Positions 13,561 to 15,690 of a stretch of DNA of 64,000 bases are shown here, one piece after another. The stretch comes from a virus (lineage: Duplodnaviria > Heunggongvirae > Uroviricota > Caudoviricetes). A program made the position numbers and the translations under genes. The stretch lies in IMG/VR virus record IMGVR_UViG_2639762884_000001, one strand, 5' to 3'. The first letter of the stretch is position 1, and every line of letters begins with the position of its first letter. The notes below the pieces were generated by a model, which saw only the letters and a program-made list of their open reading frames with translations, was not told the origin of the DNA and ran no database searches.

Positions 13561-14879
13561 AAAAGTTGATCGCACTTAAGCATAAGCTGGACGAAATGAA
13601 AGCTATGGGAACCAATGCAAAAAAAGAGGCATTGGCCAACATGGATGACTTTGAACAAAGCATGGTTTCATTGATGCTCAACCCTTTCATCCGTTTTGGG
13701 GTAAAGAAATACAAAGTGGCAGAGCCGCTTAGTGAGTCCGTCCCAAGTGACGAAAAAGCCATTGATGTACTGAATAAGCTGGCCTCTCGCGAGCTGACGG
13801 GGAACGCAGCAATAGCAGCTGTTGAGTCTATCGTGGCGTCAATGTGCGCCGATGGGCAGGACGTGTTCCGTCGTTTCCTCTTAAAAGACCCGAAAGCAGG
13901 TGTTGGGATTAGCCTATGCAACAAGGTTTTTGAAAATCCCATTCCGAAATTCGAGGTGCAGCTGGCGTCACCGTATAAAGAAAAAGGCGACAAATACCCC
14001 TTCAAGCCAAATCCTAAAGCAAAATGGCCGATGATTGGCAGTCTTAAGCTCGATGGTTTGCGAGTAATTTGCGAGGTTATTGTTGACGAGGAAGAGGTTA
14101 ACTTCCTTTCTCGTACTGGTAATCCAATCACGTCTCTCGATCACCTAAAGCCAGCAATGCTCGAATTAGGCAAACTTTCAGGCCACAAACACATCTTCTT
14201 CGATGGTGAAGGAACAGCCGGTTCATTTAACCAGTCTGTATCTGCATTGCGCAAAAAGAACGTGCAGGCAATTGGCGCTATTTATCATGTTTTCGACTTC
14301 TTCCTACCGGAATGGCGGGCACAGGCTAAATCCAAAGAGTATGCAAAGACAGGTATGAAGCTGAAAGAGCGCCTGGCTATGCTGGTGGCGTTGTTTAAAA
14401 ACGATCGCAGTGAAGGCTACGCACAAGACATTCACCTGCATCCGTTCTATATCATCCATAGCCACGAAGATTTCATCGAACGCTTCATGAAACGCCTAGA
14501 CGATAACGAAGAAGGGGAGATGGGCAAAGATCCGAACTCTGTTTACGAGTTTAAACGTACCCGCAGCTGGTGGAAGTTAAAAGACGAAGATTCAGAAGAT
14601 GGTGAAATTATCGACTTTGAGCCGGGCGACCCGGACTCTGGTTTTGCCAACACGCTTGGAAAAATTGTTATTCGCCTTGAAAACGGTGTGATTGTTCGTG
14701 CGAGCGGCATTAAGCATAAATATCTGGACGAGATCTGGAACAACAAAGAGAAGTACCGTGGTCGTATTGTCGAGGTTCATTGTCACGAGAAAACGCCGGA
14801 TGGCAGCTTACGCCACCCACGACTGAAATGGCCGCGTTGCTTACGCGATACAGAAGATCGAATCGGAGATAAAGAATGA
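13557..14879 (+). CDS. ATP-dependent DNA ligase
   Basis: Adenylation motif KLDG (IGSLKLDGLRVI) and downstream ligase-like motifs; 440 aa. Confidence 0.75.
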   Translation: MKKLIALKHKLDEMKAMGTNAKKEALANMDDFEQSMVSLMLNPFIRFGVKKYKVAEPLSESVPSDEKAIDVLNKLASRELTGNAAIAAVESIVASMCADGQDVFRRFLLKDPKAGVGISLCNKVFENPIPKFEVQLASPYKEKGDKYPFKPNPKAKWPMIGSLKLDGLRVICEVIVDEEEVNFLSRTGNPITSLDHLKPAMLELGKLSGHKHIFFDGEGTAGSFNQSVSALRKKNVQAIGAIYHVFDFFLPEWRAQAKSKEYAKTGMKLKERLAMLVALFKNDRSEGYAQDIHLHPFYIIHSHEDFIERFMKRLDDNEEGEMGKDPNSVYEFKRTRSWWKLKDEDSEDGEIIDFEPGDPDSGFANTLGKIVIRLENGVIVRASGIKHKYLDEIWNNKEKYRGRIVEVHCHEKTPDGSLRHPRLKWPRCLRDTEDRIGDKE

Positions 14880-15055
14880 TGCTCGGCTGGATGATTGCAT
14901 TTTTAGCAGTTGGTTTTTTCATAGGTATTGTGGTGATGTCCAGTTGCATCAATGACTACATTAAAAGCGGTGTTATAGAAAGACGCGGTCGTATTTATCG
15001 CATTGTAGAAATAACCAACACCCAGAAGGAGATTAAGGATGATCGTATTAAGTAA
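14876..15055 (+). CDS. small membrane protein (59 aa, not in ORF table)
   Basis: ATG overlaps ligase stop (ATGA); one TM (IAFLAVGFFIGIVVM) plus basic tail; paralog of 15251..15403. Confidence 0.35.
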   Translation: MMLGWMIAFLAVGFFIGIVVMSSCINDYIKSGVIERRGRIYRIVEITNTQKEIKDDRIK

Positions 15056-15254
15056 ACGGGAGAAGGAAACGCTTCATGAAATCAGTAAGTGGCCGGAGTT
15101 CCCTGAGTACTGGAAGCCTAAAACGCGAGCTAAGTTAGAGCGTTTAGGGTTGGTTGCAAACGTTTCTGAAACGTGGTGTTCGGCCAACTACCAGTTAACT
15201 GATAAAGGGAAAGTATTGCTACAGCAATTAGTAGAATCAGGAGTGTTAAAATGA
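15039..15254 (+). CDS. hypothetical protein
   Basis: 71-aa ORF with GAAGGAG RBS. Confidence 0.45.
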   Translation: MIVLSKREKETLHEISKWPEFPEYWKPKTRAKLERLGLVANVSETWCSANYQLTDKGKVLLQQLVESGVLK

Positions 15255-15403
15255 TTCCATACATCTCATTAGCTTTTATGGGTGGCTTCCTTATCGGCTT
15301 CGGCATCTGTCGTGATTTAATTAAGCAGGAACTTAAAACCAAAACACTGTGCATCGGAAAGCGTGTGTATCGGGTAGTTCATGAAACAAAGGTGAAAAAA
15401 TGA
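15251..15403 (+). CDS. small membrane protein (50 aa, not in ORF table)
   Basis: ATGA overlap with upstream stop; TM SLAFMGGFLIGFGI; tail KRVYRVVHETKVKK resembles GRIYRIVEITNTQK of 14876 ORF. Confidence 0.35.
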   Translation: MIPYISLAFMGGFLIGFGICRDLIKQELKTKTLCIGKRVYRVVHETKVKK

Positions 15404-15690
15404 GCAATTTAACTTCTTGGGAATGGTGGTTGGCCACCTATTTCTTAGCGGCCGGAGTCGCATTCGCCTTTTACGTAGGTCAGTTAGTCGTAAAACTGTT
15501 GCTGATTAAATTTGCTAGTCATAAACGTATCGATGATGGTCTGTGGCGTCTTGGCACCCTGGTGGAAACTCGCTACGGGCAACTTAAGGAGAACGAAACC
15601 ATTACTATCCAGGCGAAACGATTCACTGCCACCATCACAAGAACACCTAGTCGTAGAGTGGCCTTGATCAAAAAAGTCACAACCGAATAA
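15400..15690 (+). CDS. small membrane protein
   Basis: N-terminal TM WWLATYFLAAGVAFAFYVG; ATGA overlap with upstream small ORF. Confidence 0.45.
   Translation: MSNLTSWEWWLATYFLAAGVAFAFYVGQLVVKLLLIKFASHKRIDDGLWRLGTLVETRYGQLKENETITIQAKRFTATITRTPSRRVALIKKVTTE

Follow-up and report, generated by a model that had tools for sequence, protein, structure and literature searches.

By profile comparison, ORF1 and ORF3, two of the four small genes that close the replication-gene operon of a phage-plasmid, are true, ancient paralogs. They constitute a small-protein family which is found only in SSU5-type elements. ORF1-4 are genuine protein-coding genes. Taken as a whole, the data are best explained by coding genes at the tail of a replication operon which, with ORF1 and ORF3 as paralogs, form an accessory membrane module; we consider this explanation moderately probable.

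Organization of the gene cassette

The window, i.e. the whole stretch of 64,000 nucleotides that was analysed, is an SSU5-like phage-plasmid. Escherichia phage Cyrano is 99.3% identical to it. The order of genes in the replication operon is helicase, primase, two hypothetical genes, ligase and ORF1-4, i.e. the cassette is located at its tail. Six genes of this replication module overlap in a chain: a hypothetical gene, the ligase, ORF1, ORF2, ORF3 and, as the last one, ORF4 (Table 1). A preliminary description of this DNA had given coordinates and products for the four ORFs and had quoted the tail strings of the first and third; all of this was correct.

Table 1. Positions of the overlapping genes and of the direct repeat in the window.
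Feature	Position	Strand	Characteristics
Upstream hypothetical gene, 156 aa	13090..13560	+	CYRAN_35 homolog; opens the chain; TGA overlaps the ligase ATG (ATGA, ligase start 13557)
ATP-dependent DNA ligase, 440 aa	13557..14879	+	KLDG motif present; homologs match PF01068; its stop and the ORF1 start share ATGA
Imperfect 16-nt direct repeat, left copy, GGAGATAAAGAATGAT (SD + ATG + AT)	14865..14880	+	Ligase/ORF1 junction
ORF1, 59 aa, phrog_4381	14876..15055	+	Predicted N-terminal TM helix with invariant G13xxxG17; basic tail with RGRIYRIVEIT; ORF3 paralog by sequence
Direct repeat, right copy, GGAGATTAAGGATGAT	15028..15043	+	ORF1/ORF2 junction; matches the left copy at 14/16 positions, at a distance of 163 nt
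ORF2, 71 aa, phrog_4054	15039..15254	+	Predicted soluble; 17-nt overlap with ORF1
ORF3, 50 aa, phrog_6302	15251..15403	+	Predicted N-terminal TM helix with GxxxG; ORF1 paralog by sequence; conserved ORF4 partner
ORF4, 96 aa, phrog_4507	15400..15690	+	Predicted N-terminal TM helix with G19/A23/G27; invariant KRIDDxLWRLG motif

The ORFs had been described as joined by ATGA-type junctions throughout. This holds for ORF2/ORF3 and ORF3/ORF4. It does not hold for ORF1 and ORF2: the ORF2 ATG at 15039 is followed by an A and ORF1 stops with TAA at 15053-15055, hence the overlap of 17 nt. The ligase/ORF1 junction, on the other side, is again ATGA with a 4-nt overlap. Thus, the overlaps from ligase to ORF4 are 4, 17, 4 and 4 nt, a pattern repeated in most intact distinct cassettes. 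SD-like motifs are located 5-7 nt 5' of each ATG (GGAG, GGAG, AGGAG and AGGTG for ORF1 to ORF4, respectively) and are present in most of 90 distinct cassettes. With these SD sites and stop/start overlaps, the sequence predicts that ORF1-4 are translated from one mRNA context. A search for sigma-70-like promoters inside the cassette retrieved none on the coding strand; the single promoter-like site was on the opposite strand (10.7±3.3 expected). The notion of co-oriented, tightly coupled small genes was thus borne out by same-strand stop/start overlaps and the absence of an internal promoter, with the coupling predicted from the sequence. A search of the cassette against Rfam found no RNA family inside, hok/sok-type RNA included. 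Just 3' of the cassette, a covarying, conserved RNA structure of about 450 nt is located (15749-16202). It may be a more novel item than ORF1-4.

The small ORFs are conserved protein-coding genes

Purifying selection acts on each of the four ORFs. The dN/dS values were 0.135 for ORF1, 0.07 for ORF2, 0.21 for ORF3 and 0.13 for ORF4, at a near-saturated dS of about 1-3; that of the ligase was 0.04. Among 90 distinct cassettes the ORF1 frame was intact in 72 and that of ORF3 in 82. Are these short frames possibly open by chance, or non-coding sequence? Lengths of only 50-59 amino acids and the lack of ORF1 in the Cyrano annotation might be taken to say so. This is contradicted by dN/dS values of 0.13-0.21 at near-saturated dS, by the number of intact frames, by the SD sites and by the fact that a missing ORF1 is removed exactly at its gene boundaries. 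We regard the chance of non-coding frames as negligible.

Conservation in relatives had been proposed as a check of the small ORFs. They are kept in order in dozens of diverged relatives, the Yersinia pestis plasmid pMT1 included. Across the SSU5 supergroup the ligase is followed by genes of 58/59, 71, 50-57 and 96-101 amino acids. Homologs formed 35 (ORF1), 32 (ORF3) and 42 (ORF4) clusters, all on Enterobacterales contigs of about 100-135 kb, and a tblastn search found the family in 649 PLSDB plasmids.

The preliminary description had considered the first and third genes to be unannotated and overlooked. ORF1 is indeed absent from the Cyrano record. ORF3, however, is annotated there, and the records of SSU5, pJN2-26 and pMT1, as well as those of many RefSeq plasmids, include both. 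In general these genes were not missed: hundreds of plasmids, as well as SSU5 and pMT1, list their products as hypothetical, and they make up phrog_4381 and phrog_6302. ORF1-4 matched their PHROGs with E-values of 1e-36 to 1e-58. Against the phrog_4381 HMM, ORF1 residues 1-59 covered positions 1-59 of 59 (9.5e-39); ORF3 residues 1-50 covered positions 1-50 of 50 of phrog_6302 (1.4e-36). The families phrog_4381, phrog_4054, phrog_6302 and phrog_4507 correspond to SSU5_045-048 and to pJN226_0094-0097; the pMT1 counterparts of ORF1-4 are WP_002224360, WP_002224361, WP_002225462 and WP_002224363. The counterparts in SSU5, pJN2-26 and pMT1 are full-length matches, in the same order after the ligase, with the same overlaps and with no sequence difference. 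No function is given in the PHROG and RefSeq entries, where ORF1 and ORF3 stand as two unrelated families. Nor do these entries record the paralogy, the core pair of ORF3 and ORF4 or the ORF1 deletion variants presented below. For ORF1, ORF3 and ORF4, matches above threshold were absent from Pfam, NCBIfam and PADLOC, the latter's defence HMMs giving no match, and PHROGs returned families without function only. A literature search found no paper addressing ORF1-4.

ORF1 and ORF3 are ancient paralogs

A BLASTP comparison of ORF1 and ORF3 gave 31% identity over 45 amino acids; overall, identity was about 25-31% over about 45-50 residues. With hhalign the probability was 82% (E 1.1e-5, 49 columns). 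The profile-profile score of 29.3 was compared with a null distribution from 200 column shuffles in which the partition into TM segment and tail was kept (12.1±2.9, maximum 23.2). The tails alone scored 18.0, against a null of 8.3±2.1. The alignment is gap-free from end to end, and G13, G17, R39, Y41 and R42 are invariant in 25 sequences. In the ORF3 tail KRxYRxVHE is invariant (K37, R38, Y40, R41, V43, H44, E45), and the motif mostly reads GKRVYRVVHET. Further, phrog_6302 is cross-matched by ORF1, and an exhaustive profile search retrieved bridging sequences such as P0116, which scored 35.4 bits with ORF1 and 35.8 bits with ORF3. ORF4, a third single-TM protein, served as a negative control in the homology test; its score was at the level of the null. 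It was also considered as a third paralog and rejected: hhalign probabilities were 1.4% with ORF3 and 0.5% with ORF1, and a BLASTP match was absent.

The likeness might instead reflect convergence or compositional bias of unrelated peptides, each with a TM segment and a basic tail. The limited identity over so short a length, an hhalign probability of 82% rather than above 95%, and the separation into two families in PHROGs would be in keeping with this. Yet, relative to shuffles that preserve TM segment and tail, the score lies about 6 SD higher and exceeds the maximum of 200, and the tails are about 4.7 SD above their own null. Neither the shared invariant residues in an end-to-end alignment, nor bridging proteins equidistant from both ORFs, nor the null-level score of the co-located ORF4 are expected from convergence, which we judge very improbable. 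Therefore, the similarity noted in the preliminary description was above chance and joins homologous, predicted single-TM proteins with basic C-terminal tails. The tandem duplication proposed there stands as a duplication. It is not a recent one, because the copies are only about 25-31% identical and both types are already present in a diverged Klebsiella clade. Nor is it strictly tandem, since the copies are separated by ORF2, which is unrelated.

Predicted membrane topology and structure

TM and topology calls were made from hydropathy and charge counts. The maximum Kyte-Doolittle means over 19 residues were 2.55 for ORF1, 1.84 for ORF3 and 2.00 for ORF4; that of ORF2 was 0.33. Hydropathy thus supports the single-TM character claimed for ORF1 and ORF3, and predicts it for ORF4 as well. 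No K or R residue is located N-terminal of the TM segment, and the C-terminal flanks carry 9 (ORF1), 10 (ORF3) and 13 (ORF4). According to the positive-inside rule the basic tails would be cytoplasmic. We infer that ORF1, ORF3 and ORF4 are bitopic inner-membrane proteins with the N-terminus out, of which only 1-7 residues are predicted to be periplasmic, and with a basic C-terminal tail in the cytoplasm.

The ORF4 model, of only moderate-to-low confidence (pLDDT 66.9), consisted of a long helix and a beta-hairpin. A Foldseek search of this model against BFVD had no match at E≤0.001. NCBI names ORF4 homologs 'C-type natriuretic protein'. As a Pfam scan at E≤1 gave only Tetrabrachion (E 0.14), a relation to C-type natriuretic peptide was rejected, and the name seems to have spread as an annotation artefact.

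ORF2 had sub-threshold winged-helix matches only. They were mutually consistent and all were located at residues ~31-66: HTH_45 (E 0.18), MarR 2rdp (E 0.16), PA1607 (E 0.69), SSO5209 (E 0.013) and Csa3 (E 0.0015). In PADLOC, Csa3 and CARF models were weakly matched at their wHTH ends (E 0.0015-0.027). A PDB profile search with the ORF2 alignment gave only weak MarR/HxlR-type and spurious armadillo-repeat matches. The single-sequence AF2 model (pLDDT 59.5, no strands) was unusable.

Natural variants of the cassette

ORF1 is precisely absent from 9 distinct E. coli cassettes, a clean deletion, and in relatives without ORF1 the left direct repeat is joined straight to ORF2. Klebsiella deletion variants retain ORF3 and ORF4. 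In L141 and L155-157 the C-terminus of ORF3 and ORF4 were lost together. In elements of the Cronobacter/Enterobacter type the ligase is accompanied by a single ORF3-type gene and a homolog of ORF4. A P0116 profile scan of viral contigs found this type of locus only, and of genome contigs no match; a tblastn search with P0121 matched Klebsiella plasmids and had no match among phage records. The ORF3-type gene invariably overlaps an adjacent ORF4, and the two are kept or lost together. Since one clade possesses only an ORF3-type gene plus ORF4, these two are the core pair, although co-retention could reflect simple adjacency and not partnership. Elements lacking ORF1, ORF1 and ORF2, or ligase, ORF1 and ORF2 exist, i.e. 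no single component is essential. This fits an accessory role.

Expression and possible functions

The expression data of the LF82/Cyrano paper are for the lysogen state only (PMC9928086). Normalised counts in the Cyrano lysogen were 5-7.6 for CYRAN_36-39, 7.1 for the terminase and 7.4 for the major capsid protein; the repressor had 96 and CYRAN_43 had 7084 (PMC9928086 S1 Table). In the Cyrano lysogen the cassette is silent, like the ligase and the virion structural genes. Such silence argues against a classical prophage-type exclusion.

Are the predicted membrane proteins part of a lysis system? Their small size, with one predicted N-terminal TM helix and a charged tail, would suit membrane-permeabilising peptides, be they holin/antiholin-like, single-gene-lysis-like or Hok-like toxins, and the TM region of ORF4 (residues 8-34 only) weakly matched the holin phrog_2359 (E 0.027). 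However, Cyrano has a complete, separate lysis cassette with holin, endolysin and Rz/Rz1 at 26.7-28.2 kb, about 10 kb upstream of ORF1-4 at 37.4-38.2 kb. ORF1-4 belong to the replication operon and are coupled to the ligase, and the non-lytic plasmid pMT1 keeps the cassette intact. Holin or lysis-cassette membership was rejected, because the genes are not next to endolysin or spanins and the only match is the TM segment of ORF4. A Hok/Gef type I toxin-antitoxin system was rejected as well: at E≤1 neither Pfam nor NCBIfam had a Hok_Gef or holin match, Rfam had none, and the N-terminus is without K or R, the opposite of Hok. What is shared with Hok/Gef toxins and class III-like holins is a size of about 50-100 amino acids and one N-terminal TM helix; what differs is the N-terminal charge, a location outside the lysis cassette, the lack of antisense RNA or a mok-type frame and the lack of a family match. 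A lytic function is thus quite improbable.

A second possibility is a membrane tether. Phage phi29 p16.7 is encoded with replication genes. It has an N-terminal TM anchor and a cytoplasmic remainder, and possesses both a coiled coil and a defined domain that binds DNA. Similar to phi29 p16.7/p1, the basic tails of ORF1, ORF3 and ORF4 and a winged-helix-like ORF2 might jointly recruit replicating DNA or parts of the replisome, e.g. the ligase. TM anchor, cytoplasmic remainder and replication-gene setting are alike. A small TM gene always directly follows and overlaps the ligase in all three cassette layouts, the tails are strongly basic and by charge cytoplasmic, winged-helix matches of ORF2 recur below threshold (MarR 2rdp, HTH_45, Csa3 C-terminal domain), and expression is at the level of the ligase. 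On the other hand, the tails comprise 30-60 residues without a recognisable DNA-binding fold or domain, similarity to p16.7 was absent from every library searched, the winged-helix fold of ORF2 is putative, and elements have dispensed with ORF1, ORF2 and even the ligase. We consider a tether unlikely, yet the most substantial of the rivals.

Of the possible roles we consider that of an accessory host-takeover module, acting by division block, transport block or exclusion, the likeliest. We propose it tentatively, by analogy to other small phage membrane proteins. T4 Imm and Sp and SPO1 gp56 are small phage membrane proteins which function in host takeover or exclusion. Like these, the proteins reported here are small, predicted to be membrane-anchored, dispensable, encoded among early/replication genes and would be made in lytic growth. 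They differ in that ORF1-4 have no match to them in Pfam, PHROGs or NCBIfam. Among enterobacterial proteins, AcrZ and MgrB are small and bitopic and regulate larger membrane proteins; they are encoded by chromosomal stand-alone genes. They share a length of about 50 residues, one TM helix and a short extracytoplasmic end, such that action by helix-helix contact would be expected; a sequence relation is absent, and here the genes form a coupled phage-plasmid operon, with a paralog pair and a conserved, beta-strand-like tail motif.

How might an accessory membrane module operate? Each helix has an invariant motif of the small-xxx-small type, which is GxxxG for ORF1 and ORF3 and G19/A23/G27 for ORF4; through these motifs the helices would pack into a hetero-oligomer. 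ORF3 and ORF4 would be the assembly core, to which ORF1 would add a subunit that is partly redundant. In the tails, the conserved strand R-[VI]-Y-R-[VI]-[VI] could be a binding epitope. The module would be made together with the replication genes upon induction or infection, and it would act on host membrane machinery at the cytoplasmic side of the inner membrane. A more far-reaching proposal, which we regard as improbable, is that the pair of ORF3-type protein and ORF4, joined by ORF1 and a winged-helix-like ORF2 in the elements that have them, is an uncharacterised membrane device specific to the SSU5 supergroup, either an anchor that holds the replicating genome or the ligase at the inner membrane or a novel device for lytic-phase exclusion or host shutoff, with the tail motif as a new protein-binding epitope.

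Implications for the SSU5 supergroup

The ORF1/ORF3 finding alone does not open a long-standing question. Its immediate consequences are for annotation: the Cyrano record should gain ORF1, phrog_4381 and phrog_6302 can be merged at the superfamily level, and the label 'C-type natriuretic protein' is to be dropped from ORF4 homologs. Small membrane proteins are under-annotated and seldom have an assigned function. The present family is a clean case: its proteins have about 50 residues, there are two diverged copies to a genome, conservation is strong, and the family is restricted to one group of phage-plasmids that is of medical relevance. The SSU5 supergroup takes in elements like pHCM2 of Salmonella Typhi, Klebsiella elements carrying AMR and elements like pMT1 of Y. 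pestis. Its natural variants, i.e. the exact deletion of ORF1, ORF3 and ORF4 alone and the two-gene layout of one clade, are ready genetic contrasts.

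The genes downstream of the ligase overlap and are conserved

Four small genes, ORF1 to ORF4, follow the ATP-dependent DNA ligase gene of this SSU5-like phage-plasmid. Their positions agreed exactly with those of the preliminary description, which had all four joined by ATGA-type junctions. This holds for ORF2/ORF3 and ORF3/ORF4, whereas ORF1 and ORF2 overlap by 17 nt. The ligase stop and the ORF1 start also form an ATGA, as do the stop of a 156-aa gene (13090-13560) and the ligase start; the chain starts there and thus links six genes. SD-like motifs are located 5-7 nt ahead of the starts (GGAG for ORF1 and ORF2, AGGAG for ORF3, AGGTG for ORF4) and are present upstream of most relatives' copies.

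Features of the region downstream of the ligase gene
Feature	Position	Strand	Remarks
ORF1	14876-15055	+	59 aa
ORF2	15039-15254	+	71 aa
ORF3	15251-15403	+	50 aa
ORF4	15400-15690	+	96 aa
Imperfect 16-nt direct repeat GGAGAT[A/T]AAG[A/G]ATGAT	14865-14880 and 15028-15043		14/16 identical, 163 nt apart
Multi-branch domain of candidate RNA	15801-16078	+	RNAalifold
19-bp hairpin of candidate RNA	16081-16202	+	RNAalifold; variable loop of ~85 nt
K/N/I-rich ORF	17209-18429	-	406 aa; opposite strand, directly past the tRNA cluster

Conservation of the small ORFs in relatives had been named as a check, and order and frames were indeed kept across diverged loci: every one fetched retained the order ligase, 58/59, 71, 50-57 and 96-101 aa. 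In 158 loci with 90 distinct cassettes, the ORF1/2, ORF2/3 and ORF3/4 overlaps were 17, 4 and 4 nt in 35 cases, 17, 1 and 4 nt in 22, 17, 4 and 13 nt in three and 14, 4 and 4 nt in three. Nei-Gojobori dN/dS in seven diverged loci (the window, SSU5, pJN2-26, and Citrobacter, Salmonella and Enterobacter elements) was purifying for all four genes, ranging from 0.07 (ORF2) over 0.13 (ORF4) and 0.135 (ORF1) to 0.21 (ORF3), at a dS of about 1-3; the ligase had 0.04. The four are real, conserved, overlapping genes.

Full-length matches (E 1e-36 to 1e-58) placed ORF1 to ORF4 in phrog_4381, phrog_4054, phrog_6302 and phrog_4507, all families of unknown function. Homologs of ORF1, ORF3 and ORF4 formed 35, 32 and 42 clusters in database searches. 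Their source was in nearly every case a contig of some 100-135 kb from Escherichia, Salmonella, Klebsiella, Citrobacter or Enterobacter, and they mostly bear the name 'hypothetical protein'. In PLSDB the family is present in at least 649 plasmids (Klebsiella 229, Escherichia 218, Enterobacter 75, Salmonella 43, Yersinia 43). A Y. pestis pMT1-type plasmid (NZ_CP084340, 1029-2952, locus L160) retains intact copies of all four genes directly ahead of caf1R and the F1 capsule operon, with the ligase 5' end truncated by IS100. The view that ORF1 and ORF3 are unannotated was partly correct: the closest record, that of Cyrano, lacks ORF1 but has ORF2 to ORF4, and SSU5 (SSU5_045-048) and pJN2-26 (0094-0097) have all four. 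Many ORF4 homologs (P0068-P0104) are named 'C-type natriuretic protein' by NCBI. No natriuretic-peptide family match was found for ORF4 and its homologs, and the label looks like a misannotation propagated from SSU5_048.

ORF1 and ORF3 are paralogs

ORF1, ORF3 and ORF4 each have a single strongly hydrophobic N-terminal segment that is preceded by no basic residue and followed by 9-13 K/R; for ORF1 and ORF3 this bears out the single-TM protein with a basic tail proposed earlier. According to the positive-inside rule the tails would be cytoplasmic, with just 1-7 residues in the periplasm. In ORF4, G19 and G27 are invariant, A23 is nearly so, and an invariant KRIDDxLWRLG block follows the helix. 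Its AF2 model (pLDDT 66.9) has a helix at residues 6-61 and a hairpin at 67-80; a fold search with this model returned no match. ORF2 is soluble; its sole matches were sub-threshold and all covered the recognition-helix/wing portion of winged-helix proteins. A single-sequence model of ORF2 was too poor for use.

ORF1 and ORF3 aligned end to end without a gap (BLASTP, 31% identity over 45 residues), and their family profiles matched over 49 columns (hhalign probability 82%, E 1.1e-5). Because TM segments inflate profile scores, alignment columns were permuted within TM and tail parts separately (200 shuffles). The profile score was 29.3 against a null of 12.1 ± 2.9 (maximum 23.2), and the tails alone scored 18.0 against 8.3 ± 2.1 (maximum 16.2). 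ORF4, also a single-TM protein of the same operon, served as a natural negative control: it scored at null level against both families and had no BLAST match. A merged ORF1 and ORF3 profile retrieved just 24 of 1.84 billion representative proteins at E ≤ 1e-3, several of them intermediates. P0116 joins an ORF3-like start, MIPYI, to an ORF1-like RRRVYRVVEIT (35.4 bits to ORF1, 35.8 bits to ORF3), and P0111 has IKSGIV together with RVYRVVHET. Five residues are invariant in both families: G13 and G17, which form a GxxxG motif of the TM helix, and the tail residues R39, Y41 and R42. With high confidence, then, we take the proposed homology of ORF1 and ORF3 as established from these comparisons.

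The duplication is old and ORF1 is dispensable

A tandem duplication had been suggested. ORF1 and ORF3 are duplicates, yet old ones, and the copies are separated by ORF2, hence this is no simple tandem repeat. Klebsiella phage-plasmids such as pMB7868_2 have ligase, an ORF1-type (63 aa), ORF2 (71 aa), an ORF3-type (52 aa) and an ORF4-like gene (80 aa), so both types predate the split of the Klebsiella and SSU5 clades. In a Cronobacter/Enterobacter clade the ligase is followed by just a single ORF3-type gene (55-56 aa) and an ORF4 homolog, which shares ...EDxAWxL...Y(G)xL...TxQG... with ORF4.

ORF1 is precisely absent from nine distinct E. coli cassettes (L023, L024, L025, L027, L033, L037, L038, L043 and L045), where GGAGATAAAGAATGATCGTATT joins the two repeats that bracket ORF1 in the window. 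The missing stretch is exactly the 163 nt between the repeats, and the ligase ATGA leads directly into ORF2. In several Klebsiella-type contigs a deletion has joined the N-terminal part of the ligase to the C-terminal part of ORF2 and left ORF3 and ORF4 intact. At four loci a 138-aa gene replaces the ORF3 C-terminus and ORF4 together; two of these have also lost the ORF1 TM segment. These natural variants indicate that the genes are accessory, that the ORF3-type gene and ORF4 are the stable unit and that ORF1 is dispensable. In the dN/dS alignment two Salmonella contigs (L007, L008) had identical ORF2 to ORF4 and different ORF1 TM halves, which suggests recombination within the cassette.

The four genes belong to existing, uncharacterised database families, and coupled operons of small phage membrane proteins are of a familiar kind. 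A literature search found no paper on ORF1 to ORF4; the relationship of phrog_4381 to phrog_6302, the ORF3/ORF4 core pair and the precise ORF1 deletion appear to be new.

A candidate structured RNA adjoins the tRNA cluster

Within the window, positions 13500-16100 shared 99.3% identity with Escherichia phage Cyrano, which is the SSU5-like phage-plasmid pLF82 carried by E. coli LF82. Identity was 98% with two further phage-plasmids from E. coli, 78.8% with Salmonella phage SSU5 and 74.4% with Klebsiella phage pJN2-26. The Cyrano order is helicase, primase, two hypotheticals, DNA ligase, the ORF cassette and a tRNA cluster. In the window four tRNA genes (Asn, Tyr, Thr, Ser; 16466-17023) lie downstream of the cassette; three are annotated in Cyrano (Asn, Thr, Ser). 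As tRNA-Tyr (16546-16632) and the gap ahead of tRNA-Ser differ, the window is closely related to Cyrano but not identical with it. The 406-aa ORF past the tRNAs lies in the variable region; the cargo at this place differs among relatives (for example a DUF4145 protein, PhoH or glutaredoxin).

From the ORF4 stop to tRNA-Asn, about 450 nt (15749-16202, plus strand) surpass the genes on either side in conservation across SSU5-like elements. Folding 27 distinct sequences together with RNAalifold gave 101 pairs in 12 helices; 99.0% of cells were paired, against 32-46% with slid partners as controls. Compensatory both-side changes occurred in 78 cells against 22.7 ± 4.8 in shuffles (0 of 500), with 13 compensatory pairs. 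GC<->GU changes on the plus strand were many, and stems were held while loop lengths varied. Rfam gave no family for 15749-16202, only a weak tmRNA-like match (15764-15866, E 0.011). Some large phage ncRNAs also adjoin tRNA clusters. The region is a candidate large structured RNA and may merit separate study.

Expression in the lysogen and a possible role

Sigma-70-like promoter matches were strongly depleted in 11000-17200 (a single minus-strand match where shuffles gave 10.7 ± 3.3), which fits one long transcription unit. In published LF82 transcriptomes (LB, normalised counts; PMC9928086, S1 Table) ligase (5.9), ORF2 (6.4), ORF3 (5.0) and ORF4 (7.6) were at floor level, where the major capsid protein (7.4) and the small terminase subunit (7.1) also stood; the Cyrano repressor had 96 and CYRAN_43 7084. 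Thus the cassette is off in the plasmid or lysogenic state, as lytic genes are, which counts against a role in lysogenic conversion, plasmid maintenance or prophage-type exclusion. Lysis or permeabilisation is improbable: a full holin-endolysin-spanin cassette is located some 10 kb from these genes in Cyrano. Membrane tethering of replication is somewhat less doubtful, though still unlikely, and some other role takes what probability remains. Our tentative preference is for accessory proteins that act on the host at the inner membrane. ORF1, ORF3 and ORF4 would be N-out/C-in bitopic proteins whose helices may associate by their small-xxx-small motifs to build a hetero-oligomer; its basic tails, which bear a conserved strand motif, would be exposed to the cytoplasm during lytic replication.
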